Origin: Haplodiscus bocki
Taxonomy: Eukaryota
DNA: 64,000 nucleotides
Direction of reading: 5' to 3'
Assembly: GCA_965655095.1 (NCBI GenBank)
Contig: OZ296652.1
Coordinates: 106,020,001 to 106,084,000, forward strand
The position numbers were made by a program, and so were the translations under genes. The notes under the pieces are model-generated. The model did not search any database. It saw nothing but the letters and a program-made list of their open reading frames with translations, and was not told the origin of the DNA. Position 1 is the stretch's first letter, and each line of letters begins with the position of its first letter. Of this stretch, positions 7,389 through 53,059 are shown piece after piece.

Positions 7389-10300
7389 ATGAATCACCGT
7401 GGTCCGTGGTGGCTCTAGATGTCATTTCCTAAAGTTAGAGAAAAAAGCTGATGCTTTTTTTTCAAAAAAAATTTAACAGAAACAAGATAACTTGAGGGAG
7501 AAGCTTTGCTCAAAGCTCTCCAAGAGAGAGTAATCATGATCCAAAAACTTGACGCCGAAATTGAACTCTCAATTGAAAACCAAAATGACCTCACCACAGA
7601 ATTTCATGAATCCACAGACTTTCACACCGCAGTGGATAGCACCATGGCTGAAGTATCAGCATTAATTGACAATTACAAGCAATCGCCTGACGGTCGTTGC
7701 AGCCCTTCTCATCACTGTCAGCAAATTTGAACACTTCACATAGCAAATTTAGATTACCGAAAGAACAACTTCCATCCTTCACCAGTTCCTACAAGGATAA
7801 GATGAGTTTTGTGGACTGTTCAAGGCAGCCGTTGACAGCAACGTTGAACTGACAATTTCTGAGAAACTAAACTATATGAAAGCATGCGTTAAAAGGGACG
7901 CCGCTCGCTTGGCTAGTTCGATTAGCATCTGTGATCGAAACTATTCCATTGCCATAGACTTGCTGACTGACTGCAACGAGAATAAGCGTAGTATTGTGCG
8001 AGCTCATTTGCAGAAAATTCAGACACAGCTTCATTGAAAACAGAACCCGGCAGTGGTCTGCGTAAACATCTTGAGACAACTAACGAGTGCTTATAGTCTT
8101 TAGCGGAAAGTGATAAGTTTGTCCACAAGTGGGACTCTATTTCATTTTTTCTTCTCTCAGAAAAGTTTGATTAGCAGTCCCGCAAACAATGACAAGTAGA
8201 CAATCCGGAGACAGATTATTTGTCTTGAGAAAAACTTCGCAATTTTTTAGATATTCTTGTTCGTGCCATGGAATCCGGCAATGCTAAACCAATCGATCCA
8301 TCCGCTAGGAGGACTAATGCTCAGCTCTCAGACAAACCCATCCAACCAATTTCCGCTTCCACATCATCATGTGAACTCTGTCAAATACCTCAGAACCTTT
8401 ATGTAAGTCCACAGTTCAAGCAACAGCCATTAGCAGAACGACAAAAATTATCCAAAAAGAAAAATTTTTGTTTCAATTGCTTCAAAACAGGGCAATTGTC
8501 CAACGCGTGCAGAACAATCTTCACCTGCAAAATATATCAGTTGCGACATTGCGAAGTCGTACACCGTTATAACAAAAGTCCACATGTATCAACTGGTGGT
8601 AACAAAAACGGAAACTCTTCGTCAAAAAACACTTCGCGCTTAGAATCAACTACGTAGGAGTCTACTCGCAAAATCACAACAGGACCTTTCAGTACACAAG
8701 GCACTGTCAACAGTGTTCAGTTGTCAACTGCCTAATTATCCAATCGTAACGCTAGCGCGACGACTGCTTGTCGTAAAATTGTCACTAGTCGTATGAAACA
8801 TGGTAACAATTTGGATCCCTCTAGTCCACGCTTCAACACAATTAGAAAATTTGACATCCGCCGCGGCGCCGACATTTTGGACGGTATCTTTTTTGAACAA
8901 CATGTTCAAAGACAATGGTTTGCTTCCGATGGAATCATATTTCGGTTGGTTGCATCGGGTGCTGCAGTCGAAAACGCCAACGTTTTCCATACAAATTTGC
9001 AACAAGCCTGACTTCAAATGATGCTGAAAACATACTATGCAGGTACTCCACAGCGTAAAGATAACAGATGAACAAAAAATGTGCGAACAACATTTTACAC
9101 CAAGAACAAAAACAAACTTAGAAGGTTATTTAAAAGGTAAACTAATTTTTAAAGGAAGGCCTACTTCTCTCGGTCAAGGCAGAAAAAAGGCAATGAGAAT
9201 GTTTATGAGGCATGAAAAACACTTCACAAGAACGCGGAAATAATTGAAAATTACCGGGCTTTCCTTCAAGAAGTTCTATCATTAGGTCACTCGAAGAAAG
9301 TTTTTCCCGGTGAACAAGACGCTTTTCTTGGCAGATAATTTCTACTTGGCACATCATTTTGTTGCTAATGAAAACAGCACGACAACAATGTGCGTTTTGT
9401 CTAATGCCAGTGCAAAGCCAATATCTCTGGTCTCTTTCTGAATGGCTGACTCAGTGTGGGTGCAAAAAAAAACAAAATGATAATGTTGACAACTTCATTT
9501 GCATCAAGTGTTTCAGAGTTGCAATGTTCAAAGACGTTTCAAACATGTACAGACAAGTAGCGTTGGCATAAGAAGATAAATATTTTGACTTACGCTTGTG
9601 AAGAATCCATGACACACAACCTGCCGATATTTACCGTATGCCGAATAATACTTCGGTAAAACTATTTCATGTCGCTTTTCGATTCGATCTCTGACTAACT
9701 GTGCAGGAGTCCGCAATGTTCCGCTGCTGGTACAACAAGCAATTCGACGCTTTTTCTAAAACGATGACAACTTCACAGGTGCAAACTATGTCTCTGAAGC
9801 TAAAATGTTGCAAACAGGTCTCAATGACATCTTAAAACAATCCGAGTTTGATTTCCGCAAGTGGAAGTCAAACACATCTTCAATCTATCTTGATCTTCTG
9901 GAATTGTATCGCAAAGCTAATAACTTTTTTGCTTTTCTTAGTATTGATCACACCATAATTTTCTAGGGAGAATTTGGAATCCTTCATCTCACACATTTTT
10001 TCCTCAAAACTTCGCACACTGATGACCCACTTTTCCCAGGTAAACACAAAACAAACAGACAAATGCTCAGTGATATATCGAAGAGCTTCAACCGCTGGTG
10101 GGGCTATCATCCGTCACGATTGTCGTGAAACAGTTAATGCAAGAGTGCTGGAAAACCAACATTGATTGACATGACAAAATATCACATGATTCATTTTTAG
10201 TATAACTTAGCTGGCAGTCTTATCTAGTGAGCCCTAAAAAAACATATTTGAACAGATTTTTTTTAACCACTGGTTCTTCTTACAAAATACAGTCACTTGT

Positions 10301-12400
10301 TTACAGGTAAACTTCTGGAAAGGTGTGTGCAGCTGGTGTGTAAATTGTTGAGATAGATTTTGACGGCAGGCGGCATTCTCCATTGCTTCCAGAAAAATCG
10401 AAAGTTGTTTCATTGAAAATGATGAAGATACCAAAATTAGAATTCTGCGACGCTTCACTTGGCTTTCGATGAGAGAAATTACTTTCGGAATCTCTGCAAC
10501 AAAGAAGCAAGCACCACAATTGATTCCATCCAAGGGTAGACTGATTCAACAATTGACTTTTTTGATTACCATGAGAACCAAGAGACTGGTCGATGGTTGT
10601 TTCTAATGGAAGATCAGAATAACAGAGTGAGCCGGGATTCAGCTGTCAACACGTTTTTGGGAAGAGAATCCCGCTGATCCTGCTTCAGTTATCTCGGAGC
10701 CGCAATTATTGAAATTCATTGACATTTCGTGAGACGAACCAAAAAGGCTAGTCAGTGGAAATCTTCCAGATCCACATCCGACAAGTGATATTGAAGAGGA
10801 AACATAATGAAGACAAACGTTTTTAATTAACACAATCATACACAATACCTGAACGAGACGTAATTGATCTCACAAAGTACAACTTTCTTCAAAAAATTTC
10901 CGCATAATTGGTCACATGGAAAGGCTTATCTCACGACTTAGAAAACAAAACAGAAAGTTTCCAATTTAAAATTGGGCCCCTGAAATGTTGGATTCTGCTA
11001 TGACACTTCTACAACAGGAGAACTGGCAGTTTTTGCAGAGGAAATTGAAACACTCCAAATATCGCTACAAGTCAATTTCATGAGTAAAATACTCAACCTG
11101 TACCATTTTTCTTATAACATCGTTCTTTGTGTTGGCGGATAGTTGGCGCATGTAAATCTTCCCGTTGAAACAAACCAAAAGCGATTTATACCAAAAGACA
11201 AAGAGCTAGCATAAACATTGGTTTTCAGTGCACAAATTCCAACAAAACACGGTTGAAACCATCAAACTGTAGCATTCATTAGAACTAGTTTTTGGATTCC
11301 AAGTTGTCGGGACTGATTGAGAAAAACAGTTTTAGAAGGTTTGAAGTGCAATAGATTAAAAGTGAAAAAAATTTTCCCTCGAGTGGGCAATGTGCCAAAA
11401 AAACGAGTCGGCCCTCCATCAAAAACATTTCAAAAAGCAAACTTAGACCTTGCAAGACCATTTTTCCTCAAAAATGCGCCAAAAATTGTTCGAAAACCCC
11501 ATATGGCACTCTCAGTCTGCTTTGCGAGCGAAGCAGTACACACTGAAGCAGTAAAAAACAGCACAGCGCCGGCTTGCATAGCTGATCTGCGGAGGTTCGC
11601 TTCTCGTTGAAGCTATCTTGCACAACCGAGTACAGACAATGCAAGCAATTTTTTTGCTGCAAACTAAATTTCCAGGAAAATAAAGGGTTCTCGACTCAAA
11701 TCATGCTGACAGTAAATTTATTAGCGCAGAAAAATAACTTCTAGCAGTACAAAAGGTACTCGAAGCAAATCATGCTGACTAACTACAAACCAACTCAGCT
11801 GGTCTCAGCATGATTTGAAATGTGATACCAACAAAAACACAATATATTGGTGGATCATGGGAATCTGGCATAAAGAGTGCCTAGCGTCACCTTGGAAGAA
11901 TAATGGGGAACGGAGTTTTGACTTGTAAGGAGTTAACACCTTTTTTTTGGCAGAATTTGTTAGTGGTCAATTCTCGTCCGAAATGTCAAATTTTAGAAGA
12001 CCCGAAGAAGTCGGAAATACTAACACCAGCACACTTCTGTCTGGGTGGTAAATTTGAATCTCGCCCTCTAATAGAAAGTGACGACAACAACACAAAAAAT
12101 ACATGTTCAATCAAAAAAACTTCCCAACTACACTTTTTAAATATCAATTTATCGAAAAGATGGTCAAGAGAGTATGTATTTGCTCTACCGGAACATACGA
12201 ATTGGAAACAAGAAACAATCTATATGAAAGTTGGAGATGTGCTTCATATGTCTGATGACAATGTCCCTGCACTAAAAAGGCCAAATTCTAAAATAATTTA
12301 CGCCTAGAGCGGTCACAATCAAATTGTGAAAGTAGTCAAGATAAAAACTGCTCTTGCGATATACAGTCTCCCGTACATGAATTGAGGAATTTGTTTGATC
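7389..12400 (+). mobile_element. Degenerate BEL/Pao LTR retrotransposon (gag-pol polyprotein pseudogene)
   Basis: DUF1759-like gag RLPKEQLPSF...KLNYMKACV (~7750-8010); triple Cys-His knuckle CELC..CFNC..CKIY..H (ORF 8268-8657); RT remnants DVSNMYRQV and NDDNFTGAN; integrase LDLARPF, EAVHTEAV, LRRFASR, DNASNF, VNSRP, LTPAHF; DUF5641-like KRWSREY...VGDV. Many stops and frameshifts; LTRs not recognisable. Confidence 0.9.
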
Positions 12401-14832: not shown

Positions 14833-17800
14833 ATCGAAACATTCATGAACCAAAACAAACTTGAAGACCCGTAAGACACTAAAAACGTTGATAGTGGAAT
14901 ATGGAACAACCCTGCCAGAGAAAACTTGGACTAAATTCGAATCGGAGGAATCCTCGAGTTCGAAAATATTGATGCTCGCTCCCGGCAAAGGAGCGACTTC
15001 AATGAATTTGAAAAAGTTTTGGAACACAATAATGTTGAGCTGCAAAAAAAGCGATGCCACACGACTCGGCAAAAACGATACAAACAAATCTAAGAAGGTT
15101 CTCCACAAAGGGCCAAACGCATACCAAAGACGCATGATTCCTTTATCAGCTCGCAAACTGTAGTCTTTTCGGAGGCCCGTCTTCCTGAGTAGGCAGTCAT
15201 CCAAATAGGAAGCAAAACGCGAGACCCTGGCTCTCATCAAGAGACGCCAAATGTTACAGCAAGGTGAAAACCCAAGACGCCCAAGAGTACGCGACGGTGT
15301 TCTGTACATACATGACGGTAACAAATGGACACCTAACGTAGAAAACAGTAACAAGTCGGGCACTAATACTACCTGATCCTCTATGGTCTTCAACCAACTT
15401 GTATTTAACACGTAAGGATTATTGACTACCAGAGAAGAACTAACTTCTCAAACGCTTTCCAAACCGAAAACTGCTACCGTAACATCTGCTTCAGTGAGAC
15501 TTGGCTGAAAGAACACATGTCGGACTCTGCATTATTCCTACCAAGATATGAGGAACACATATAAGACAGATCTAGAGACAGCGGCAACACAAAAGATGGA
15601 GGCGTGCTAATTGCTGTTACCAAAAAACATACCTAACATTGAAATCGCATCTGACTTCGAAAAATGCAAAATATTCTTCCATAACGAAAGTAGCCGAATA
15701 GTTATATACTGCCTCCATAATGACCCAAACACCAGTCGCTGCTCATGGACGACTGAATAGCTTCAGGAAGTTATCTAACTCTTCAGACTAACCCAACTCC
15801 GACACAATGCTGCCCGGGCCTGGAGTGTAGGAGACACCAATTTTGACTCTCACTGTCCAACATTCTTATCATCTTTTGCAGAAGATCAACCGATAACCAA
15901 CAGTCTTTGCGAACGACATTTCCAACAACTCATGTTAACCCGACAGGGAAAAATCTAGACGCCTGCTTTTGCAACATACCGCAAAAAAGCATCAGTGTAA
16001 ACATCGATAACCAAAAGGAACACCGGTTCTCATCTGACCACTCCGCCACTCCGCCTTTTTCGCCAAAAGCAGCACGCACAGTCTTCCAACTGAAACAATA
16101 ACTTAAACCACATCGAACCTAAACTACGACTTTGCATCAATTGCGTACAAAAATGCAAACTGGAACAAAGTCAACCAATACATAATTGGTCACCCTCTTG
16201 ACCCCAACTGCAAAAGCAACGTAGATCTAATGGTAGATCTCTGGTACGAACGGTTTTATGAGATCCTGCAAGATTTTTCTCCCGCCAAAACGAAACACTG
16301 CGTTACTTTAGCCTCTTGGGTTGGGAACGAGTGGTTTCAATTTATAGAGAAACTCAACACTTTGCAGAAGATCTGGAGAACGAAAAGCAAACTTACCCTG
16401 AAAACCAAAGTTGAAGAAACTCACACAAATTTGACATTATCACTAAAAAACGACTACTTCAACTATCAGGCAGAACCGTTCCACGAAGGCAAGTCTTCGG
16501 TCCTCCAGAGGTAGCTGAAATCAATTTCAAAGGCAAACGGTCCAACATTTAAATTCTACTTGGAACAAGGCGTCTCGAAAGATGACTATGAAAAAGGTGA
16601 ATTTTTATTAAGTAGTTTCAATTTGTTTTTTGGCGAAATGACAACCAGGCCTAAAACGAGCTCAAAAAGGAGCCAAAGTTGAGATGCCCATACTTCTCCC
16701 CGAGCAAATTTTAAACAGCAATCTTGAAATTAGACGAAAACAATGCGCTCGGCTCGGACAATAACAGCAATGCGCTCCTCAAAAACCTCGCTGAATCGTT
16801 ACCAAAATCCCTGAGCATGAGTTCTAATCGTTTTGCAAGCAAGGATGCTTCTCCGGCGAAAGCGAAAGTGAGTGTCATAGTCACCTTTTTCAAAGAAGTT
16901 GATACACAAGACGCATCAAAATACAGGGTCGCTAACTTTCTTTCTGCAGTCTCCAATTTCCTAGAAAAAATTATTTTTTAAAAAAAATCGCCCCTAATCC
17001 ACTCAAAGCTATCCCTAAATCAGCATAGCTTCAGACCAAAGATATCTACCACCTCAAATGTGAGCGAAGTTTTTCACCATCTTTATAGTCAACTTGACTC
17101 ACAAACTGTTCAAAATTAACTGCCTTCTATTTCGACTTCCAGAAAGCCTTTGATAATGTTTCCCAACAACGACTTCTCGAAAAACTCTCGAAATTTTTAA
17201 ATGGGCACAATAGTTTCAACCTAATAAGCAGCTACCTAGAATAACAGAGACGAACCCTGAAAGTCAATCATCAAAACACAAGCGAACTAGCAGTACCGAG
17301 CAGGGTCCCAGAAAGATCCTTGCTCGGCCTTCTCTTCTTCCATGTCTACATAAACTACTTGCCCGACATCCTAATGTCAACCAACTTCGGCTACGCAGAT
17401 GACTTCCAATTCAGTGGAGATAACCCGGTTACACTGAATATTGACGTCACATGGCTTTATAGATGGTGTTCCGGTAGTTTCATGACAATGTTTTTTGCGA
17501 AAACCAAATACGGCGCTATCAAAAGCTGCGCTTCAGTATCCTTGTCCAATTACACTTCCGAAAAAGCTAAGACAATGAACGAACTTAGACTTCTGTTTCC
17601 TGAAAAACTATCATCGTCACCTCATGCTTCGAAAAGAGCAGAGACAGCTATCAAAGCCCATCACACTCATAAACTAAACATATCAAAAGCTACACCAGTC
17701 AATCGAAAACAATGCATATGTCTCTTAGTTGTTCCAGTCGTCAGCTACGCATCGATCTCGTGGATGTCCAACAAAGGAGACCTGAGGGTGATCGAAAATG

Positions 17801-18332
17801 TGCAGCGGAAAGCCGTAGCCTGGATACTGGGACCAAACGGGCTCACTTACAAGGAGAAATTGGTTACCCTGGATTTTTCACCTCCCTCGTTATACCACGA
17901 ACTCCCTTCAATCCCAATACGTGCCAAAATCATGAACGGTAACGACATAGACTGGACGATTTATATGTCAAAGTTAGACTACGGAGGTACAAGAAATTCA
18001 CGAACTCGCAACTTTGCCGCCAGACCCATGAGATTCAAAAAATGTGAATCCGACTTCTTGTTTCGAGCCTGCCATCTAGGCAACGTCTTCAACGACTATT
18101 CTCTTCAACGCGAACCACAAAAACAAACTTCTCCAAGTCTACAAAGCCTTTTTGCGGCAAATCCGAGAAACCAACCCCTGCACCTGTCGATTTTTATGTG
18201 ACTGCAGCACTTCTCAAGAAACAAAGAAACTGTAAAAACTCGAACTACCACTGAAGCATTAAGAACAAGCATACGAACGGATTCTTACCAAACCCTTGGA
18301 CATTTGTCCTAAATACTTTTATTATTATTATA
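14480..18332 (+). mobile_element. Near full-length degenerate L2/CR1-type LINE (PHD-finger ORF1; APE endonuclease plus RT ORF2)
   Basis: ORF1 PHD-like CKAC...CLICGSLMH (~14520-14610) and RLGK motif; APE motifs SETWL, GGVLIAV, GDTN, SDH; RT motifs QHSFR, DFQKAFD, SRVPERSLLG, YADD (ORF 17320-18201); 3' (ATT)n tail at ~18321-18332. Confidence 0.9.
14794..14829. repeat. (CT)18 microsatellite inside LINE ORF1
   Basis: Direct read. Confidence 0.95.
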
Positions 18333-23600: not shown

Positions 23601-24066
23601 CACACAAACTCCAATTTTGGGTCCATCAGAGAAGCGAAGTCTCTATGGTCGAAGTGATGTATCAGATGAGACATGACGCGTTTACATTAAATCTGTCACT
23701 AAAGGCTGTCGAAGTTTTCTTCATCATTTTACGTGCGGCTTGAAATTATTGATGCATACACCCTCGACATTATTTTTATGAATGAAGCTGAGCTTCAGAA
23801 CCATTTGTCAATTTTGATGACAGCGTGTAATTCAGGGTTGAAATTTCCAGCTGCTTGTGACTAAAAATCCTTGTTTATGCAGACGACATCTCGTTAGCAT
23901 TTAGTCAGGAGATTTAACATGAAAGCAATTTGAGAGCGCTGCATTGGAAGGTCTTTGAGGAGCTTAAAAGATGGATTTATAATGTTAATTTCTGTGTAAC
24001 GTAGTTTCGGCGGATTCTTTTTTTGTTGTATAAGCCTGTGGTTGAATTATTCGGTGTTAATTTGAG

Positions 24067-24458
24067 GTGACAAGCAGAATAAAGCGTGTACGTATGTGGG
24101 GTGCGTTGGGAAAGACGAGTACGCCCAAAAATTGAAAGGTTTATGCGAGTCTGATGGGGTCAATGTAAATTTCTACTCGACCGAACAACAACCGACTGGC
24201 ACTTGTGCGGTGTGCATTACTGGACATGACAGATCATTAGTTGCAAATTTGGCTGCAGCTAATCTATACAGCAAGGACGAACATCTGAAAACTGCGCCAA
24301 TTTGGGCTCTGGCTGAGAAGGCAAAAATGTACTACAGTGCTGGGTTCCCTTTGACTGTGTGTCCTGAGGGAATGCTGGCATTGGCTGAACATGCAAGTCA
24401 GAACGACAAGATATACTGCCTCAATTTATCAGCAGAGTTCATCTGCCAATTTTTCCAG
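24067..24458 (+). CDS. ADK: Adenosine kinase, exon 2
   Basis: GCVGKDEY...PTGTCAVCITGHDRSLVANLAAAN...YSAGF.LTV.PE...LNLSA.FICQFF; acceptor tttgAG|GT restores phase 1; donor CAG|GTGAGT, phase 0. Confidence 0.93.
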
Positions 24459-24629
24459 GTGAGTTAACCTGGCAGAGCAATGCGTGTGCCAAATTCTCTA
24501 ACTGATTTTGTCCTCACTAGTTTATTGCTCTAGTTAACATTTATATTACTTCAAGGCTGTCTGAGACTTGCAGTTCTCTTCCCGAGAGAGACATGGAGAG
24601 AATGAAATACATTTCCATATAATGTTGAA

Positions 24630-33581: not shown

Positions 33582-34022
33582 GAGCCGATGTCCAAACTGC
33601 TTCCTCATACTGACTATTTATTTGGAAACGAAACGGAAGCAGTGAAATTTGCGGAGGCTAACGGTGGACCCACGTCAGATTTGAAAGAGATTGCGAAATG
33701 GGCCAGTCAACTTCCGAAATCCAACGAGAAGCGAAGCCGTTACGTCGTTTTCACCCAGGGACTGGAGCCAACTCTGGTTGCTAAAGATGGAAGAATAGTT
33801 GTGGAATCTCCTGTTGTGAATCTAAATGCCGATCTAATAGTTGATACTAATGGTGCCGGTGATGCCTTTGTCGGTGGCTTTTTGGCAGCCTTGGCTCAGG
33901 GTCTAGGTCTGGAACAGTGTGTGACCTTAGCACAAAGTGCTGCTAAGTATTGCATCCAGAAACCTGGAAGCGTGTTTGTTGCTTCAGAGAGAAATCAAAT
34001 TGCGTCAGCCATTCTTCAATAA
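33582..34022 (+). CDS. ADK: Adenosine kinase, exon 3 (terminal)
   Basis: Acceptor tctatctttAG|GAG; LFGNETEA, VVFTQG and PfkB signature DTNGAGDAFVGGF; spliced CDS is 232+392+441=1065 nt, i.e. 354 aa plus stop. Confidence 0.95.
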   Translation, partial: EPMSKLLPHTDYLFGNETEAVKFAEANGGPTSDLKEIAKWASQLPKSNEKRSRYVVFTQGLEPTLVAKDGRIVVESPVVNLNADLIVDTNGAGDAFVGGFLAALAQGLGLEQCVTLAQSAAKYCIQKPGSVFVASERNQIASAILQ

Positions 34023-40323: not shown

Positions 40324-40893
40324 TGACACTATAACAAACACAAACAAAAAAAACATTTCTGATTTTATTTACGCAAAGGTCAAAATAATATTTCTTTTCG
40401 GTCATTTATTTTTCTCAGCGCACATGTATTTCCAGGCCTGCCATTTTGTAATGCTTAAATTTCCTTCGTATCTGATCGTGATGCAGTAATATTAATCACC
40501 CCCTCGTATCACCGCGACTCTCTAATTTTGCATTTATTGGCTAAGCTTGCGCTGAATATTTGTTTTCGTTTAACCGGATGTTCAAGTCACGCCGCCTATC
40601 GGCAGTTTCTAATGGATGAGGAGTACATTTATAATCGGTCCCAATAACTTTTGAACAACTCACAAATTGCAATCGTTTTAATGCTGTAAACAATTTTGTT
40701 GAAAATCTTTGTAATCATTCCGCTAGAAACCTTCTTCTGAAATGTGAGTTCCCGTAAAACAAAAAATTCAACTCTTTATACCTGCAAAAAATACATTTTC
40801 CGAAAAAAAATACATTAGAAAATTAGCCGCATAATTCAAGTTTTAGCCAAAATTAACCAAAAGGAATAGCTCCCCACGCTAACGGATGCTATA
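40324..40893 (+). repeat. 5' LTR
   Basis: Direct repeat of 52508-53059 (about 10% mismatch in a 165 bp stretch counted by hand); begins TG, ends gatgctata; left edge uncertain by a few bp. Confidence 0.9.
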
Positions 40894-41748: not shown

Positions 41749-41985
41749 ATGCCAACACCTCCTGCAGAACCAGAGTCGCCTCCCCGTCCCGTTTTGTCCC
41801 GCATGCCTCCACCTGTCTACGCCGAAGTTTTTTCAATCTCGGAAAACAACTACGCTCCCGCTCAATTCACATTCCAATCTATTGACCGTTTCCTTCTCGC
41901 AGCTTTGTGTATTTGCGTCATCTGTTTTCTCCTTCTCAATTTGACTTTCGCGTTGTACCTCTATTTTCAATATTTAATTCTCTGA
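41749..41985 (+). CDS. Small leader ORF: Pro-rich, PPxY motif, C-terminal transmembrane helix (78 aa)
   Basis: ATG-initiated open ORF MPTPPAEPESPPRPVLSRMPPPVYAE...FLLAALCICVICFLLLNLTFALYLYF. Confidence 0.5.
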   Translation: MPTPPAEPESPPRPVLSRMPPPVYAEVFSISENNYAPAQFTFQSIDRFLLAALCICVICFLLLNLTFALYLYFQYLIL

Positions 41986-42316
41986 TGGTCGGCACTACTG
42001 TCAGTCCTCTCAACTTTCGTTGGCTGCCTCCTCATCTCCAGTTCCCGGTATCGTCGATGAACTCCAATAAGCAACCGATGACTCTCCGTTTCTTCTCCGC
42101 CTCCTTCCAACTATTCGTTTGAAGAAAAACTCATTACACATTTACCCAAACACTTATGCCTGGACCGATCTTCATAATTGCCTTCATGTTTATCGCAATG
42201 AGACTGTTTTTGCTGGTGCGTTATACGAACATGAATTCGCGAAGTACTTGACTATATGTACTTGAAGTTGTGCTAACTGTCGCATAAACGTGTTGTTCTA
42301 AAACCATTCTAAATTA

Positions 42317-43311
42317 TTGAGATTGACTGCACCCGCTCCTGCCCCTAACTATTCATGCCTTCTTCCGGCATCCTTCACAGGTCTTACCGATGTCGAAGAC
42401 TATCTTATACAATTTGAGGCTGTTTCCACGCTTTCCAATTGGGTCGCTCTGACTTCCGACCCCGCCAGCATTTCTTTTCTGCTGGCCTCACCGGAGATGC
42501 CCTCACTTTTTAACGGTCCCTCACCACTGCCCAAAAGGCGACTACGATGAACTCAAGCGTCTCTTTCGGCGATGATACAAACCCAATGCCGACGTTTTGA
42601 AGACCCAAGTGAAGTCCTAATGCCAATTATCTGGCCAAGATGTGTCCGTTTTTTACCGGATACTCCGTGACCGCAGGAAAAGCTTATACCGACAATGCCG
42701 TGCGCAATGAGCTCCTCCACACCACATTCATCGAAGGGTTGGCCAATTCCGTCGTTCGGTGGGGAGTCCGAAAAGCGAAACCAACAGTGGTTGAGGACGC
42801 ACTTCGATTGGCACTTGAAATGCAATCCTGTTTGAACCTCCATGGCCAGCAGTCCGACACTCCAGCGGCGTCTATTAACAATTTGACTGGTCCTTCGTCG
42901 TCCCAAAGTGAACTTTTTTCAGATCTCATTTTGACCATCAAGGAAGAAGTTAAACGAGTCGTACGTTAACGAAGTGGTCCCCCGCAACAAGGCCGCAGTG
43001 GTCAACGTGCTACCAGCAGCCGATCGCAACAATCGGAGTCGAACAACCATACGAATCAAAATCAGCGCCGCACTTGGATCTCAAACCAAAGAAATTGCAC
43101 CGATAGCCGGGGTAACACCCCCAATAGAAGCCAATCGCACTATTCCAAGAATCGCATGAGTTTCAACAATTCTGGCACCAACTCCGCAAAAGAATGCCAA
43201 CGTTGTCATCGTAAGAATTTTGACACCAAAGATTGTAAAACCTGCTTCAAGTGTGGGCGCGTGGGACATTTTTGGCGTGACTGCCGCAGTCGGTCCCAAC
43301 CTTTAAACTAC
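42317..43311 (+). pseudogene. gag: gag (capsid plus CCHC nucleocapsid), frameshifted
   Basis: FTGLTDVEDYLIQFEAVSTLSNW, FIEGL...ALRLALEM, knuckles CQRCHRKNFDTKDC and CFKCGRVGHFWRDC. Confidence 0.85.
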
Positions 43312-43361
43312 AGCAACCTGCGCATGAGCGAGACGGCTGCGCAGTGGATCCCCATCGTCTC
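43302..43361 (+). promoter_or_regulatory. -1 ribosomal frameshift signal: T TTA AAC plus H-type pseudoknot
   Basis: Heptamer 43302-43308 in gag phase; stem 1 CTGCGCA/TGCGCAG (43318-24/43338-44); stem 2 GAGACG/CGTCTC (43330-35/43356-61); the -1 frame is open through to protease DTG at 43455. Confidence 0.8.
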
Positions 43362-45740
43362 ACCAATGAACCAGCGATTCTCAATTCTGTCATAGACAAC
43401 AAAAGTGTCTGTGTGAATCTTGAGGTCTGTAGCTCCCCAGTTGGAACAGTTTGCGATACTGGCGCTAGTGTGTTTAGCTAACGTTAGCATTAGCTAACGG
43501 CTTTTGAAACGACTTCCTGTCAACTTCCAGAACCAGCTTCAACCAGCCCATCGTCGACTTTTGGCCGCAAATCAAGCTCAAATATCTGCTTCGGGTACAG
43601 TAACTTTGCCTATATCACTCGCTAGCAACCGATACCAGCAACAGTTCATTGTGTTGGAGTCCTCAGAAGCTGATTGTCTTCTTGGTTTAGACTTCCTTGA
43701 AGACAATCACTGTGATGCTCTTTTCTCTAGCATGCAACTCAAGTTCCCTAATTCTCAGACAGTTCCTTTATTTCATAGCCGCAAAGCTCTTTGGGATACT
43801 TCTCCTGAACAAGTTAAGGTAATTGCACGAGAAACCACACTCATTCCAGCTGGTCATGAGGCTGTGATCCTGGGTGAGCTCCTCACCCAGAGTTTTCCGG
43901 GGAAATCCGAGGGTACTTTTGAACCATCACCCGAATTCTGCGACAAACACCGGCTATTGGCCTTCAGTTCTCCTTGTGAGTCTTGAGAGATGAACCGGCT
44001 CGCCTCATTAATCCTGTTGAAAATGTAACTCCTTATAAGGGCATGTCCCTGGGAAGTTTCTCCGCGGTTAGGTCTGCAGAAGTAGCGGCAATGAATCGCG
44101 TCATCGCAGACCAACCTGACAACCCCCAGAGTCAAATTCCTGACAAATGCGACGTTAAAGAAGTACTCAAACAAACTCAGTCTTCCATGGATCCACAGAT
44201 TCGTGCACAATTCGCGCAGCTCCTTCGTATATTTTCCGATGTGTTCTCAAAATTAGAATGGGATATTGGCAAGCGCGACCTTGTTCCGCACAAGATTGAC
44301 CTTTACCCGGGCTCGAAACCGGTCAAGTTACCCAATCGCCGGATGCCCATGCATTTCAAAAAGGATCTACGTCAAAAGATCAACAAGTTCTTAGAACAGA
44401 AATTGATAACGCCATAACACAGTTCCTATGGCTCACCAGTTATGTTGGGCCCGAAGAAAAAGGTAAACTCCGATTGGTCATTGACTATCGACAACTGAAC
44501 ATGCAAACAGTTAGATCTTGCTGGCGATTGCCTTCTGTTGACGAAACTTTTGACAATTTGGAAGGAAGTTGCTACTTTTCAACTATCGACATGTCATGGG
44601 GTTTCTACAAGCTCCCTTTAGAAACTAGTAGTCAGGATTATACAGCATTCAGTACTCCGTTTGGATATTTCAAACGGCTTGTTATGCCAATGGGACTCAC
44701 CGACAGCCCTCCAGTTTTCCAGTCTCTGATGGAAAAAGTCCTAGTCGTCCTTACTTGGAAAACCATCATCCTGTACTTAGATGATTGAATTACCTATTCT
44801 CGAACTGCCGAAGAACACACTGAGAAACTTCGAGAGGTATTCCAACGATTCAAAGGTGCGAACTTAAAAATCAATCCGCTTAAATGTGAGTTTTTCCGAC
44901 AACATGTGCTTTTCCTGGGTCACATTGTTAGTCGAGATGGGATTCAAGCCGATCCAGCTACAACATCAGCTGTGCGCCAGTATCCAGTACCGAAGTCGGT
45001 TACTGAGGTTAAAAGTTTCTTGGGACTCTGTTCTTAATACCAACGGTACGTTCGCGATTTCGCCGCAACTGCTCGACCTCTTCATCAGCTAACAGAAAAA
45101 ATGAAAGAATTCCACTGGCACCAACCCGAAGGCCAAAAGGCTTTTGAACAACTGAAAGATTGTCTCACGTCAACGCCCATTTTAGCCATCCCTTCGATGA
45201 ACAAACGAGCCCTTCATCCTATACATTGATGCAAGTCAATTTGCCATCGGCGCTGTCCCTGCCCAAGAACAGAATGGCTTCGAGCGAGTCATTTGCTACG
45301 CCTCCAAACCTCTCAACAAAGCTAAAAGTCATTACTCGACAACCAGGCGAGAACTTTTAGCTATAGTCAATTACACAAAACACTTCAAGCACTAGCTTAT
45401 AGACCGACGATTCAAGATCATTACGGACCAGAGAACGCTCCAGTGGTTCCATAATTTTAAGGATCCCGACGCCTTAACTGCACGCTGGCTCAAAAAACTC
45501 GCTGCCTTTGACTATGAGATTGAACATCGAAGTGGTAAAAGCATTCGACATGCTGACTGCACGTCACGACTCGCGGTAACAACCGCCGCTCTCAACATGA
45601 CTGCAACCATGGATGTTAACGCTTCCGTAGTTGGTCAGCCGAACCATTCCTCGCCAAATCTTCCTTCTTCTAACAGTCTCACCCCACCAGCACAACCATC
45701 GCATAGCACCACCATACCACGGGAAACCGTTCAAAGCAAT

Positions 45741-45919
45741 CAGACTGATGATGAGCAGTCTGGAGTCAAACACGGCCACGAGGCCAGCGCAAACAACAGT
45801 AAGACTGATGATGAGCAGTCTGAGGTCAGAAATGGCAACGAAGCCGTAGAAAACCCGAATGGTCAGACTGATGATGAGCGGTCTGGGATTACACACGGCC
45901 ACGAAGCCAGTGCAAACAA
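45741..45919 (+). repeat. Three in-frame 60-63 bp tandem repeats in the pol linker
   Basis: Units at 45741, 45801 and 45864 encode QTDDEQSGVKHGHEASANNS / KTDDEQSEVRNGNEAVENPNG / QTDDERSGITHGHEASANK. Confidence 0.9.
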
Positions 45920-45932
45920 ACTGGTATCACAA

Positions 45933-46346
45933 TTCGCGGTAATCGAACACCAAGGAGGGTTGCTGGATTTTCCAAACTCAATAGCCCACTGTATTTCCCT
46001 TGACTTTAAGCTGGGGGCTGGTCTCGCAAAACAAATAAAAGAGAAGTTTCCAAGTTATTGCCCGACGAAAAAGGAGTACAAGCAACAAGTACTGCACGCC
46101 CAGTAGTTGGGTCATGATAAATTTGTTTTTCACTTGATTGTGAAACCTCGCTTTTTTCACAAACCTACATACCGCTCCCTGAGAAAAGCCTTTCTGGCTT
46201 TGCGTGATCATTGGAAGTTCTACAGAATCGACAAAATGGGTATTTCACATCTATCATGTGGTTTAGATAAACTTGATTGGACTGAAGTACAAAAAACTAT
46301 CCACGAAAAATTCAGGGATTCCAAGCCCAAATTAACTGTTTTTACC
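45933..46346 (+). other. TARG1/OARD1 (Poa1p-like) macrodomain embedded in pol, one in-frame stop at 46104
   Basis: SIAHCISLDFKLGAGLAKQIKEKF...FVFHLIVKPRFFHKPTYRSLRKAF...LSCGLDKLDWTEVQ...LTVF aligns with TARG1 SLAHCISEDCRMGAGIA..FKKKF...IYYLITKK...HKPTYENL...IGCGLDRLQWENV...ITVY. Confidence 0.9.
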
Positions 46347-48674
46347 CTGAAAACTCCGTTCGAACGCCCCACGTCTGGTGATCAAACTACAGAAGTCGAT
46401 GTACAGAAAGCACAGACAAGCGATACTGGTATCAATGAGGAACTTACTTGGCTACGCAAGCAATCTCGTCCTCCCTGTTCCCACTTACAGGGTCTCTCTC
46501 ACTATGTATGGAAGATGTGGAATCTTTTTGATTAGCTGACAATCCGTCACGGCAAATTTGCCGGAAGCATGAAAATCTCAAAACCGGTCAAATGATCTTT
46601 CAACAAGTCGTCCCACCTGCATTAGTCCAAATTATCATCTCTGCTCTCCACTTTGGTCAAACAAGTGCCCTTCTAGGAGTCACGAAGACTTTAGAAAAAG
46701 TACGATCCCGTTTTTACCGGCCCGCTTACAAACGCGACGTTGAAGTGTTTGTTGCCAGTTGCTTTGTTTGTCAGAGACGCAGCAGTCCCAAGAAGAAACA
46801 TATCCATAATCTATGGGCATGGAAGCCCAGTTTTCCATTCTCCACGGTCGGTATTGGTTTCTTAGGCCACCTTCCGCCTTCCGCCGGAAATCAATACTTT
46901 CTTCCGATCGGTGATCTTTTCACCAAGTGGCACGAAGCGATCGCGCTACCAGATCAGTCAGCTCTGACAACAGCTAAAGCCCTCATGGATCATTGGATCA
47001 CCCGCTTTGGCTACCCCGACAGCCTTCAATCCGACCAAGGACGTAATTTTGAAACTAAACTTTTCACAAGTCTTATCACACTGCTCCAATTAGATGAAAC
47101 ACGCACAACCTCCTTTCACCCACAATCCAATGCAGTTATTGAGAGGACAAAACGTACACTACTGAAAATGTTGGCTAAAACGACGTATAAAAATCAGCGC
47201 AATTGGTCTGAATTGCTTCCAAATGTAATGCTTGCATATCGCACATCTGTCCAGGAGTCAACCAGCTACACGCCTTTTTCCCTACTTTTCGGCCACGAAG
47301 CGACCCTCCCAATAGTCTTCCAGTTCCCCCCGCGCAGTGACGCTACCTGGAAAATTTATCATGAGTACGTGGCTGAGACACGGCTCCGCTTTCACGCGGC
47401 CTATAAACAGGCCCGTTAGTACCTAAAGGGTCAACAGAAACGTCAACATGCGCTTTATAACGCTAAAGTGCATGGCTCCACATACACCGAAGGTCAATTG
47501 ATACTCCTCCACAATCCGTCAACCCCAAGACGCAGTCCTAAACTTCATTCTTTTTGGCGCGGTTCATACAAAATCACACAAGTCATCAGTGAGATGACTT
47601 ACAAAATTCGTGAGATAGAAACTAACAAAGAGTTAATCGTCCACTACGATCGCATGAAATTTTTCCGTTCGACTCCTGGTGGTTTTGTACCTCCAGCGAA
47701 CACAATTTTTGCACCAATGCAACCGCCCAATGAGCTCGCTTCCAATTCTTTTCCTGCGAACTGTCATTCTTCTTTCTGTGAAGCCCCAGTAACTTGTACT
47801 TCAACAGTTTACCCAGTTCCTGTATCAAGTTCTGTCCCATTAATTCAACCAGCACCGCCCACCACTTTTGCGTCGTCACCAGTTGCTAACGACAATTATC
47901 CCGAGCCCTCTGTGCCGCTGGAGGAAGACACATTTCCAAACCGCTCATCTGATTCCACCTTGTCTTATTCCTCTCATGTTCCTGAAGTCGTTAACTCCCG
48001 AAATCGTTCCTTCAACACTGCTGTTTCCTCCACGTCTTTTCTTGATGACCCATTTCCGGAGCAGCACATCGTCGCTCCTCTTTCCCGGTCCGTTTTCCCC
48101 ACAAATACTTCAACACCAACCAAAACCCTCACGCAACGGCCACTTCTAACTGACGCTCTCCTTAATCATGCATCTTCGCGCATGACCACACTTTCTCCAA
48201 TACGCTGTGCTGATGATAATTGTCCCCGTCTATTACGCAGCAACACCGTCAATCAAAGGCACGCCACCGCTCAACGCATCCTCAATAAACAACTCCCGCA
48301 CGAACTCAAGAATGAATTTGAACTTGAAACAACGCAAACCGCGGGATCTAGTTGTCAATCGATTGAAACAACGCAGTTCACGTCAAAACCGCTGTGCGCA
48401 ACCGTCCAATCCGTCGCAAACTCCATTTTTGCTCATTCGGCAAAAACAATGGTCCAAAAACCGGTCACAAATAGCCAGCGGACCAAACATACAGAAAAAA
48501 CATGTCTTCCTTTTCGTCGGTATCATTAAAAAACGGTTCCCCAACGAATCGGATTGCTTACACTTTTGTACCCATACTAATCAATTCATGCATTCTCTTG
48601 TTTGTACCATATCGGTCTTCTGGTCTCTTCACTCAAATGTATCGCCGTTTTTATTGTTTAGATGTCGCACCTTT

Positions 48675-51002
48675 ATGCTCACGTCCTTTTTGTTTTGTTT
48701 CCTTCTCGCATCCAATGTCCCTGCGAGACAGTTTGTTCGCGATGGTCCTCGTACAGATGGCACTCCAAACATCCAAAGGGCTCTGCGTTCATTTATAACT
48801 ATCAAGCCGTCACTTCGGGAAGTGAAAGCAAAGTCCGTATTTTCTCTCCTTTTCCACGGCCGCCACCAGTTGACTTTACAGCAGTCGATTGGCCTATTAA
48901 TCTTGTCAGTAATATTCAACACAAACTAACCTTTTTGCCCTTTCTAGAAACAGTTGCGTCCGATGAGCTATGCCCAATTGCTATATACACCTCCCAGGAT
49001 CGAGCCAATGGCCTCCGAGAAAGTATTGAATATCGTGTCCACCTGATTGCGGATGAGCGTTCTGCTATTGTACAAGATTACGCTGAACTCTTACATGTTG
49101 CATTTTCGTTTGCACCACTCTCAAGGCAGCCTGCTTCTTTTGGCACTCATCATCATCGACAACAACGACATGTTCCCGCACTCATGGCAGCCTCTGGTGT
49201 GGCTGGCCTTGTTCTAGGAAACCCGATACGAAATGCTGCCTGCAAAGCCTTTTCCATCTTTAGTTTATGTAGTGATAACTCCGCTTTGAAAAACAATGTG
49301 CGCAATCTACTTCAGCGTCAGGCTACGTTTGAGAAAAGTCTCCATCTTGTTCAAGAAGCAAATGCCGAGAAATGTTTCCTTCTGGGCACAGAAATCGTTT
49401 ATACCCAGAAAAGCGTTGAAGCCTTACGAGACGTTGTCGATGCTCATTTGAACGCTACAGGAGAGGCCATTCGTCAACTCGATTCCCGGTCGATTAACAT
49501 GAGTAATTGCATGAGTATCCAGCGTCAATTCGAAATCATTGTAGACAAAGTCCACAATTACACGTCCTACTTGGACCTTGCTTAAATGCAATTGAAATCT
49601 TATCGTGCTTCATTTGTGTCATAAAAGACCTCCATGTATTCCGCGGTGTCCTCGCTTTCTTCTGGATTTGCTCCACCTAATTTCCTCATACCCGAGGAAC
49701 TTGCTGCAATCGTCGAGGACCTTTCCGCCGAAGAGATCCGCCGAGGTACCAAGTTGACGCCCGCGGTTCAAGTTGGTTTTGGTGCTACCTACTAGGAAGT
49801 CCAAATCGTGCTCGAAGTCACTGTTTTGCGAGAAGGCTCCTCCATTGTCTTAGGTATACCGGTGAACTCAAAATCGTCCACCTTCGATGTCTATCGCGCC
49901 ATTGATTTGCATCAAGCTAACGAGGATGGCACGACAGCTTCGGTTTATCGTTTTTCTCATGAGTTAGTGGCCATCGCTACTGATAACTCAAAGTATGCTG
50001 AATTCAGTGCTGCCTTTCTCAGCCAATGTTTTGGAACAAGTCGACCTAAATTATGCCCTAAAGGTTTTTCCACCAAAACGGATGAGACTCGTCTTTGTCT
50101 AACTTCTCTATTTTATGAGTACAACATCCCAGCTCTTCGCAATTGTTTAGTGGCCTCTGTCTTGTTGCTTGAGGCCCCGCAAGCTTCGTATTTAACGGAT
50201 GGTCTTAATCGCGTCATCTCTCGTACTGCACGTTTACAGGTCAAAAACGATACCGATGGTTTACCTGTATCTATATCCACACTCCAGTGTCAAGCCTGTC
50301 TTTTTCGACCCAGTTGTTCGTCTACCCTCACCTTCAATCATGGGGATCTTCTTCTTAGCCCCGACAAAGACTTTTGTGAATTCCGACCCGAGCCGTTCGT
50401 TGCATCTGTCAAACTCACACTTTCTTTGGCTGCAGTCTCTAATACCCTAACTCCTGCCAGCGCCGATTTGAACGTGTATTCATTTGGCGAAGCCCGCAGA
50501 TACATTGTTTCTAGCGTACAGTTGGAGCTGGCTGGCATCCTTGACTCACGTGAAAACAATGACCAACGAGGATCTTCGCACAGTGTCCCAACCAATTTCA
50601 CACTACTACACGACAATTTCTCCTTCCACCAGCCGTGCTTTAGTAGATAACATGCCTATGCGGATTGCTTTCTCGCTGGCATATGTATCCATGACTATTT
50701 CTGTTTTGTCTTTCAGCATCAGTTTTACGCTCTTCCGGCGTCAGTGGCAACGTTTCTTTGAACAACCACAACGGTTCTTCCGCAGCACGCACGGCCGGTT
50801 CCTACACACTGTTCCTAACCTCAACGGCGATGATAACGATGTAACAACAGCTTTCCTGTACATGACGGATGCTGAATTCCTAGCTATCAAAAGATTGGCC
50901 CGCGAAGTCCATGCTCGAAGTGACACAGAAATAACCTCATGCGTTCCTCCTCGCAACCCTTTTTATCCTGACTTAACTCATGTTTACACCTCGGCGACAT
51001 AA
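48675..51002 (+). pseudogene. env: env: class I (F-protein-like) fusion glycoprotein, several stops and frameshifts
   Basis: Signal peptide MLTSFLFCFLLAS; RQQR cleavage (49157-49168) then fusion-peptide-like HVPALMAASGVAGLVLG; heptad region; Cys-rich region; TM IAFSLAYVSMTISVLSFSISFTLF followed by RR; cytoplasmic tail. Polypyrimidine plus AG acceptor at 48645-48661. Confidence 0.85.
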
Positions 51003-51369: not shown

Positions 51370-51576
51370 ATAATTTTTGCTTCCTTCTTTTTTGGCACCC
51401 ACCTTTATGTCGTTTGAACGATTTGAATATGCTTTTGTTTCACGTCTTCTTCTCTTCCTGGTGCCTCTTCTGTCGCCGAGGCCCGGCCTGGATCTATCGT
51501 CTTTCTTCTCGACCCAACCCCCTATCGTGTTATATGATGCAACAGCAACTCCGACAGCCTTCTAGTTTTTCCTGAC

Positions 51577-52443
51577 ATGGGCAATAAACGATCTAGTTTT
51601 TTTGCTCCAAAGTCAACCGTTTGGTCCCCTTCCAAACCTCTCCAATCACTGGCCGTCAACACTGAACCCATGGTATGCAACGCCCCTCTCTAACCATCAC
51701 CGATGCCTCCGCCTATCTTGCCTGACATCACAGATGTCGGTGTCTTAACATCGCCAGTTCCGACATCTACAGTGTCCTGTCACACTGACAGCTTTGCTGA
51801 TTTAGATTTTGCTGCCCTGTTAGAAGAAAACGAAGAAGTAGACTGTCTCCAGCAGACCCTCACAGCCACACGAGCAGAATTAGGAAAGCAAAAGGCTTTG
51901 TTCATCCGTTTAGAGCGTGCGTTCAACAAATTGAAGGAAAACTACGAGCAAATCAGTCAATCGCTTATTGCGCAAACCCGCGAAAACAAATTGGACGCCC
52001 GAAATTTTGCAGACCTCAAGGACACCATATCTGACCTCCGCAAACAAAACGCCCTGCTCCAATCGGACCAACACGCTCTCCCAATACTCCATCAGCTTTT
52101 GGCTACGTTGACTGCTCCAGATATAGTTTATATGGACAATGTCAATCCCAGTACATTCCGCTATACAGTTCTGGCTTCCCAGCGCTCCACACCCGGACCT
52201 GACCTCAAAAAAAACTACTTAACATTGATGTGTTTGTGTCACCTGGATCGCCATCCCGGTATTGATCGACATATATCTCAACAACTCATTGCCGTCCATA
52301 ACATTTTAACTGACCCTGTGACTCGAGATATTTACGATTGCTGTGGTGTGCGTGCTGTGACGCGAAAAGATACTACCCATTTTTGCCACCTCTGTAATCC
52401 CCTCCCCCATCTTTACGAAACCCTCGATGACCTTTGGAAATGA
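51577..52443 (+). CDS. Accessory ORF: MGxxxS N-terminus, coiled coil, C-terminal DnaJ J-domain (open 51703-52443; in-frame TAA at 51691)
   Basis: YTVLASQRSTPGPDLKKNYLTLMCLCHLDRHPG...HNILTDPVTRDIYDCCG aligns with DnaJ YEILGVSK...EIRKAYKRLAMKYHPDRN.G...YEVLTDSQKRAAYDQYG; heptad-rich segment precedes it. Confidence 0.8.
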
Positions 52444-52498: not shown

Positions 52499-52507
52499 AA
52501 GGAAAGG
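52499..52507 (+). promoter_or_regulatory. Polypurine tract
   Basis: AAGGAAAGG immediately before the TG of the 3' LTR. Confidence 0.75.
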
Positions 52508-53059
52508 TGTAATATTACAAACACAAACGGAAAACATTTCTGATTTTGTTTACGCAAAAGTCAAATTAATATTTCTTCCCCGTCATTCAATTTTCTCAGC
52601 ACACATTTATTTCCAGGCCTGCCATTTTGTAAAGCTCAAATTTCTTTCGTATTTAATCGTGATGCAGTAACATTATTCACCCCTCGTATCACCGCGACTC
52701 CTTATACTGCATCTTTGGCTAAACTTGCGCTGAATAATTGTTTTCGTTTAACCGAATGTTCAAATCACGCCGCCTATCGGCAATTTCTAATGGATGAGAA
52801 GTACATTTATAATCGCTCCCAATAATTTTTGAACAAATCACAGTTTGTAATCGTTTTAATGCTGTAAACAATTTTGCTGAAAATATTTGTAATCATTCCG
52901 CTGTAAACCTTCATCTGAAATGTGAGTTCCCGTATAACAAAAAATTCAACTCTTTATACTTGCAAAAGATACGTTTTCTCTTCGAAAATTAGCCGCAAAA
53001 ATCAAGTCTTAGCCACAATTAAGCAAAACAATTAGCTCCCTACGTTACGGGATGCTATA
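52508..53059 (+). repeat. 3' LTR
   Basis: Starts TGTAATA after the PPT; direct repeat of 40324-40893. Confidence 0.9.

Follow-up and report, generated by a model that had tools for sequence, protein, structure and literature searches.

The window, meaning the whole 64,000-nt stretch analysed here, contains a decayed Ty3/gypsy retroelement of the env-F kind, in which an accessory gene with a DnaJ-type J-domain (hereafter the J gene) lies between the broken F-type env and the 3' LTR. Its features are as follows.

40330..40893, forward strand: 5' LTR, 86% identical to the 3' LTR over 564 columns
40742..40749, forward strand: predicted splice donor of AT/GT type in the 5' LTR, which would supply the AU of a split start codon
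40899..40909, forward strand: primer-binding-site-like sequence, a TGG-initial motif directly after the LTR that is common to young elements
42302..43395, forward strand: gag, in pieces (zf-CCHC; an intact relative has Retrotrans_gag)
43498..48529, forward strand: pol, broken (PR, RT, RNase H, macro-like insert, IN; from Pfam)
48662..51002, forward strand: env, F-type fusion protein, broken (an intact relative scores over the Baculo_F cut-off)
51436..51443, forward strand: predicted splice acceptor of the J exon, its dinucleotide lost in the window copy
51445..52443, forward strand: J accessory exon, ~330 codons, with in-frame stops at 51535 and 51691 in the window copy
51460..51630 (approximate), forward strand: predicted N-terminal SH3-like (KOW/Tudor-type) beta-barrel, from AlphaFold strands, containing the Met at 51577
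51799..52110, forward strand: predicted long helix or coiled coil (helix 119-216 and 113-198 in two models; pLDDT up to 94 in the second)
52162..52338, forward strand: J-domain, with HLD at 52240-52248 in the window copy and HPD in the family
52339..52395, forward strand: C/H-C-G...CxxC tail, a putative metal site, present in 12 of 12 lineages
52499..52507, forward strand: polypurine tract
52513..53059, forward strand: 3' LTR, carrying the donor motif again at 52922

The element shows the LTRs, the gag zinc knuckle and the order PR-RT-RH-IN of env-F Ty3/gypsy elements. Twelve types of such elements, lettered A to I and K to M, are compared below. The env of an intact relative reached 29.3 bits against Baculo_F, above the cut-off, and matched the PDB "fusion protein" 9w4c at E=1e-5. 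By lineage, Baculo_F was above its cut-off in C, weak in I and without a hit in D, E, F, G, H, and L, in all six of which an RxxR-like site and a hydrophobic peptide were recognised by eye.

Several further features of the window were recorded. A macro-like (ADP-ribose-binding) domain lies between RNase H and integrase (window ~45950-46350; residues 924-1024 of pol in locus L049); Pfam Macro was at or above its cut-off in D, E, I, and L, weak in C and not listed for K, and the insert is possibly a second counter-defence module. Upstream of it, pol carries three in-frame repeats of 60-63 nt (45740-45919). A small leader ORF of ~74-78 aa with a hydrophobic C-terminal stretch precedes gag (window 41750-41985; L049:2873-3097); it is open in copies of types A, B, and C and has no Pfam hit. 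Outside the element, two exons of a host PfkB-family kinase, which we take to be adenosine-kinase-like, lie at 24066-24467 and 33582-34022 on the forward strand (Pfam E 7e-21 and 6e-28). Decayed retroelement remnants occupy 8229-12307, with DUF5641 at 11885-12307, and 16107-18201; the former is presumably BEL/Pao-like, and the latter is LINE-like and without a Pfam hit.

An earlier note, made from the sequence alone, had described an accessory gene, combining a coiled coil with a J-domain, at the retroelement's 3' end. This description was borne out by Pfam, PDB, and fold matches and by sister copies, and its J-domain part extends far beyond one element. The details it gave are present in the sequence: an ATG at 51577 that opens MGNKRS, a single TAA at 51691, a 246-aa ATG ORF at 51703-52443 (249 aa from stop to stop), the HLD triplet, and a CHLC motif at 52384-52395. 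Both reading frame and conservation reach 44 codons upstream of the ATG at 51577, and the extra in-frame stop at 51535 falls within these codons. Counting the splice-acceptor dinucleotide lost at ~51443, the two stops and the HLD motif, the J gene is damaged at four places, and this copy is an old pseudogene.

The window J-domain matched Pfam DnaJ (PF00226) at E=1.3e-4 to 1.7e-4 with 22 bits, below the cut-off of 27.8, and intact relatives reached 46 bits (type B) and 53 bits (type C). Against the PDB, 25 of 27 rows were labelled DnaJ- or Hsp40-type, the best being DNAJC5 (E=6e-4); the other two were a J-domain by name (C. elegans dnj-12 or HCG3-type) and the unrelated NrnA. Six of the 12 lineages exceeded the Pfam cut-off, the remaining four being D (34.5 bits), E (33), F (42), and G (29.9). 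The A representative (24.5) and K (21.4) fell under it, and H, I, L, and M gave no hit at E<=1e-3. HPD was present in 11 of the 12 lineage representatives. J-domains also headed each fold search, being the top matches for models of two types (ERdj5, Z 10.4, rmsd 2.2).

To place the window copy among its relatives, we searched the 1.5-Gb genome that contains it. With the best 150 of 1170 candidates scored, matches to the window J protein fell into groups of ~85%, 66%, and 50% identity, corresponding to types A, B, and C. We fetched 57 A/B/C loci, which as top-scoring hits are biased to well-kept copies; 54 were covered at the stop and acceptor sites. HPD, which the earlier note had placed one CpG transition away from HLD, is the family state, being found at 42 of the 57 loci (one not covered; 19/27 in A, 5/5 in B, and 18/25 in C). 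The stop at 51691 is private to the window copy (1 of 54 covered loci). Because HPD is the family state and this stop belongs to one copy, it is plausible that the J protein recruits Hsp70.

Young B and C elements have LTRs that are 99-100% alike and long open frames. Further multi-copy J families came from a genome scan with PF00226 (best 150 of 666 candidates scored) and from searches with distant database relatives. These yielded nine further whole elements (D, E, F, G, H, I, K, L, and M), each carrying the J gene in addition to gag, pol, and env, and with LTRs 99.5-100% alike. The gene order gag-pol-env-J was the same in all 12 young elements examined whole (LTRs 98-100% alike). Among the 12 types, RT identity ranged from 71 to 100% and J-protein identity from 24 to 70%, and the RT and J trees agreed at deep nodes, both recovering the groups A/B/C plus E, D/K, F/G, and H/I/L/M. 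The J gene is ancestral to the clade in this genome. In a J-domain tree, 19 element J-domains lay on one side of a 100/99 branch from 13 host J-domains, a separation to which the tail may contribute, and no host donor gene was resolved among those 13.

A profile search of 1.84 billion representatives recovered 47 proteins at E<=1e-30 and 179 at 1e-10, and the ten that were looked up were all ENA or Logan entries. The best identities of three of them (P0057, P0080, and P0162) to this genome were just 42%, 56%, and 34%, indicating that the J family is also present in DNA outside it. The ESM Atlas gave no match above 0.80 for the J protein, none of 35 IMG/VR candidates was confirmed as a relative, and phage records and Rfam were without a match. 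Two arrangements in this genome stood apart. Locus L115 (G000:C10:69549000-69558999) is a tandem array whose ~2.7-kb units each hold a type-E J frame that is truncated at its N-terminus (267 aa, HPD present), and additional units lie near it. A 2.3-kb match between the two halves of L033/L034 suggests a tandem element with a shared LTR.

Substitution patterns place the J gene under purifying selection, with pN of 0.20-0.31 against pS of 0.74-0.84. We considered whether the gene might instead be a recently captured fragment of a host DnaJ gene, carried as a passenger without function, as the four breaks in the window copy could suggest. However, J frames are open in young copies of all 12 lineages, synonymous sites are saturated while amino-acid divergence is low, J co-diverges with RT, and relatives exist outside this genome. 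Together these leave a functionless passenger scarcely credible.

The earlier note had gone on to reconstruct a 288-aa, N-myristoylated, membrane-anchored Nef-like protein beginning at the MG methionine, and this part did not hold. MG, with Ser at position 6, is found in type A at 19 of 26 covered loci and in type B at 4 of 5, and two database gene calls (P0005 and P0019) begin there. By contrast, type C has Phe at this site in 22 of 23 covered loci, and the nine further lineages have no MG within the first 80 residues, so that the motif is limited to 2 of 12 lineages. Moreover, the 44-45 codons upstream of MG are 77-84% identical among A, B, and C with dN/dS of 0.07-0.13, which makes them the best-conserved part of the J protein; the coiled coil reaches only 51-64%. 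The models predict that these codons form most of the barrel, with the MG methionine inside it, and a start there would split the predicted fold. No lineage has Gly at predicted residue 2, after the Met that splicing would create. The MG methionine is therefore internal, and a myristoyl anchor is not supported. That translation from MG nevertheless yields a myristoylated Hsp70 recruiter, perhaps a minor product of leaky scanning confined to A and B, is very improbable.

How, then, is the J frame started? In all 12 types, conservation begins at a pyrimidine-rich YAG in one codon phase. The acceptor AG is kept in 47 of the 54 covered A/B/C loci (57 examined) and in 12 of 12 lineage representatives. 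The first base of the exon is G in 11 types; type C has A, and an in-frame ATG immediately follows its acceptor. The env genes of D, F, G, H, I, K, and L have a YAG/G acceptor in the same phase as J, placed before a hydrophobic, signal-peptide-like stretch. The env genes of A, B, and C have their own ATG at an acceptor-like site, and a YAG/G-type env acceptor was not found in E.

On the donor side, the window LTR site scored best among 113 GT sites in the LTR and leader. A motif, ATGT[AGT]AGT, lies 141-264 nt before the LTR end in 5 of 5 LTR types, a count made post hoc at a shuffle rate of 0.014-0.04 each and for types among which A/B and C alone share a 95-nt end. In six LTR types fetched later, the strict motif was found in five and a relaxed motif in all six (P ~1e-7 if independent, although the LTRs of H, I, L, and M are partly alignable and so not independent). 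Overall, 10 of 11 LTR types carry the motif, and 2 of 11 have it on the minus strand too. Alternative leader donors exist in D, F, L, and M, and D and F have a second AT/GT candidate. No spliced retrocopies appeared among the top 40 + 40 D-type DNA hits, inspected by eye, nor among the 54 covered A/B/C loci; none are expected, because RNA spliced from an LTR donor would be without the primer site. The LTRs of L039, L043, and L049 are mosaics, that of L043 combining an A/B-type 5' part with a C-type donor region.

From these patterns, it is probable that the J protein is expressed from a subgenomic RNA that would begin in the 5' LTR and be spliced, at a donor ending in AU, to the acceptor of env or of J; the first G there would complete the AUG. 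Splicing of this kind has a precedent in the springer-subclade env of Drosophila, which is described as spliced "from an AU dinucleotide" (PMC12992720) with a donor, GTAAGTG, 43 nt after the LTR (PMC13097621). In the parts of these sources that describe it, springer shares with our elements AU-dinucleotide splicing and a GTAAGT-type donor near the 5' LTR; the donor predicted here differs in lying inside the LTR and in that it would serve both env and J. Alternatively, a functional J gene could be expressed without the LTR donor, through an internal promoter within the 350-500 nt that follow env, another upstream exon, or a fusion with env or gag. The leader donors of D, F, L, and M and the non-coding spacer between env and J would allow this. 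Yet an in-frame ATG before the barrel is absent from most lineages, the phase and the initial G are conserved, the donor prediction was upheld out of sample, and no longer fused J form was found among 8000 scored (weak evidence), which together make expression without the LTR donor quite improbable.

The J protein consists of a predicted SH3-like barrel, a proline-rich linker, a coiled coil, the J-domain, and a C/H-C-G..CxxC tail. In AlphaFold models of types C and D, of moderate confidence (pLDDT 58 and 68.5, pTM ~0.3), a beta-domain of four strands stands at the N-terminus; it is followed by a disordered linker rich in proline, a helix 85-100 residues long, and a J-domain of four helices. 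In the whole-protein model, the beta-domain resembled the Spt5 KOW region with a middling score (VIA Z 7.5, rmsd 2.5 over 58 residues), and its likeness to Tudor domains was weak (Foldseek E ~0.05). With regard to the aromatic cage of methyl-reading Tudor domains, only one Tyr and one Phe are conserved in the alignment. We also asked whether the barrel derives from the SH3 domain at the C-terminus of integrase and found no support for this (hhalign probability 1%, little above the 0.1-0.5% of three RT controls). In all 12 types, the tail's C/H-C-G ends the J-domain and CxxC follows 8-16 residues on. The first ligand is Cys or His, and this exchange suggests a metal site.

The J gene has not always stayed with its backbone. 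Between closely related types, synonymous differences were far greater in J than in RT (RT and J, respectively: A-B 0.12 and 0.79; B-C 0.00 and 0.74; L-M 0.14 and 0.84; F-G 0.15 and 0.75). The B and C backbones have identical RT and an env synonymous difference of 0.002, yet their J proteins are only 56% identical. In five aligned pairs, identity dropped from >90% to ~50-70% at 100-250 nt before the acceptor. Between A and B, identity of 95-97% is restored early in the LTR, which makes the J exon, rather than the promoter alone, the swapped unit. Judged from these alignments, the J exon has been exchanged as a cassette between near-identical backbones. Loci L036 and L042 carry the same env deletion, with a 7-nt microhomology (L036:1997-2003 and L042:2004-2010), one with a type-C and the other with a type-B J; both J frames are open and the LTRs are >99% alike. 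The shared deletion is a direct sign of recombination, and J has been kept without env. Seven of the 57 loci, as well as L042, have the pol tail right beside the J region. Old J alleles on young backbones fit either interchangeable function or diversity driven by conflict.

Taken together, this env-F Ty3/gypsy clade probably encodes a fourth, accessory protein that acts as a class-C-like J-domain co-chaperone. The product would be a soluble protein of ~320-370 aa, not myristoylated. By analogy with known J proteins, a likely division of labour is that the barrel holds a specific client, dimerisation occurs through the coiled coil, and cytosolic Hsc70 is brought in by the HPD J-domain to remodel the bound client, in the way that SV40 T antigen acts on Rb-E2F. 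J proteins stimulate Hsp70 in an HPD-dependent manner, with SV40 T antigen an example in the relevant part of PMC7356129, and the host genome has an EEVD-type Hsc70. The client could be the element's own Gag/RNP particle at assembly or uncoating, which we put forward tentatively; the conserved barrel would suit a conserved client, such as Gag or RNA. With a little more reserve, it may be a host silencing or defence complex, a target suited by the free swapping of J on identical gag-pol-env. Some other client is doubtful. We regard as speculative, and on balance doubtful too, a fuller scenario in which a split LTR AUG in a retrovirus-like clade feeds two alternative 3' exons and J is an Hsp70 adaptor that dismantles a host defence complex, with many ancient swapped alleles as in a counter-defence arms race.

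A real rival arises from the J-domain itself. Helix II has only 1-2 Lys/Arg residues in 7 of 12 lineages (D, G, H, I, K, L, and M), compared with 4-7 in 12 of 13 host J-domains (2 in the other), and four lineages escape Pfam DnaJ. Helix IV is fused to the tail, which none of the 13 host J-domains has. The domain could therefore be a decoy or repurposed module that keeps HPD and binds Hsp70 without productive stimulation, blocking host J-proteins in, for example, small-RNA loading, or that makes some other interaction with the Cys/His tail. Against this, A, B, C, E, and F retain 3-4 basic residues, helix II of A-C is canonical and KKxY-like, and HPD has been retained over deep divergence. A decoy is thus unlikely, and productive recruitment of Hsc70 remains our preferred reading.

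J-domain capture is known in DNA viruses and pestiviruses, and pestivirus Jiv is another parasite-encoded J-domain that recruits host Hsp70. Lentiviral Nef is a spliced accessory gene at the 3' end next to the LTR; the element J gene shares this place, but no sequence or fold link to Nef was found. Polyomavirus T antigen (in the part of PMC7356129 concerned) and the giant-virus and phage DnaJ proteins among our BFVD matches are parasite-encoded J-domains for recruiting host Hsp70, as proposed here. However, viral J proteins belong to another class of parasite, their likeness is confined to the J-domain, and in the element protein this domain is C-terminal, behind an SH3-like barrel and a coiled coil.

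Among retroelements, the closest counterparts are the env-F Ty3/gypsy "errantiviruses" (Metaviridae), which in the portions of PMC13524379 ("ancient errantiviruses") drawn on here likewise have the layout LTR-gag-pol(PR-RT-RH-IN)-env-LTR, an F-type env, and multiple young copies. Compared with them, the window clade adds a fourth gene after env and a macro-like pol insert; the terms DnaJ, J-domain, and macro had no hits in the main text of that paper, nor did DnaJ, J-domain, and Hsp40 in seven supplements. The ORF3 cassettes of bdelloid rotifer LTR elements (GDSL, DEDDy, coiled-coil, TM), as presented in the accessible text of PMC5408684, are also modular, spliced, non-env 3' genes on gypsy-like elements. 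There, ORF3 fills the env slot, whereas the J gene is additional to env, and DnaJ had no hits in that text. The accessible part of PMC8616336 mentions only a host J protein. In the literature searched, to the extent of its accessible text, we found no earlier report of an LTR retroelement encoding a J protein; repeat databases (Repbase, Dfam) and subscription papers lay outside the search. The J accessory gene is real, conserved, and apparently undescribed before.

That a dedicated co-chaperone is kept clade-wide implies that targeted Hsp70 activity is required at some step of the element's life cycle or of its conflict with the host. With the start codon predicted to be split, one sharp splice prediction covers two genes, and at solo LTRs a donor in this position might also be spliced to host genes, as in springer. 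Finally, the repeated swapping of an old J cassette on identical gag-pol-env offers a natural experiment in the evolution of accessory genes in invertebrate endogenous retroviruses.
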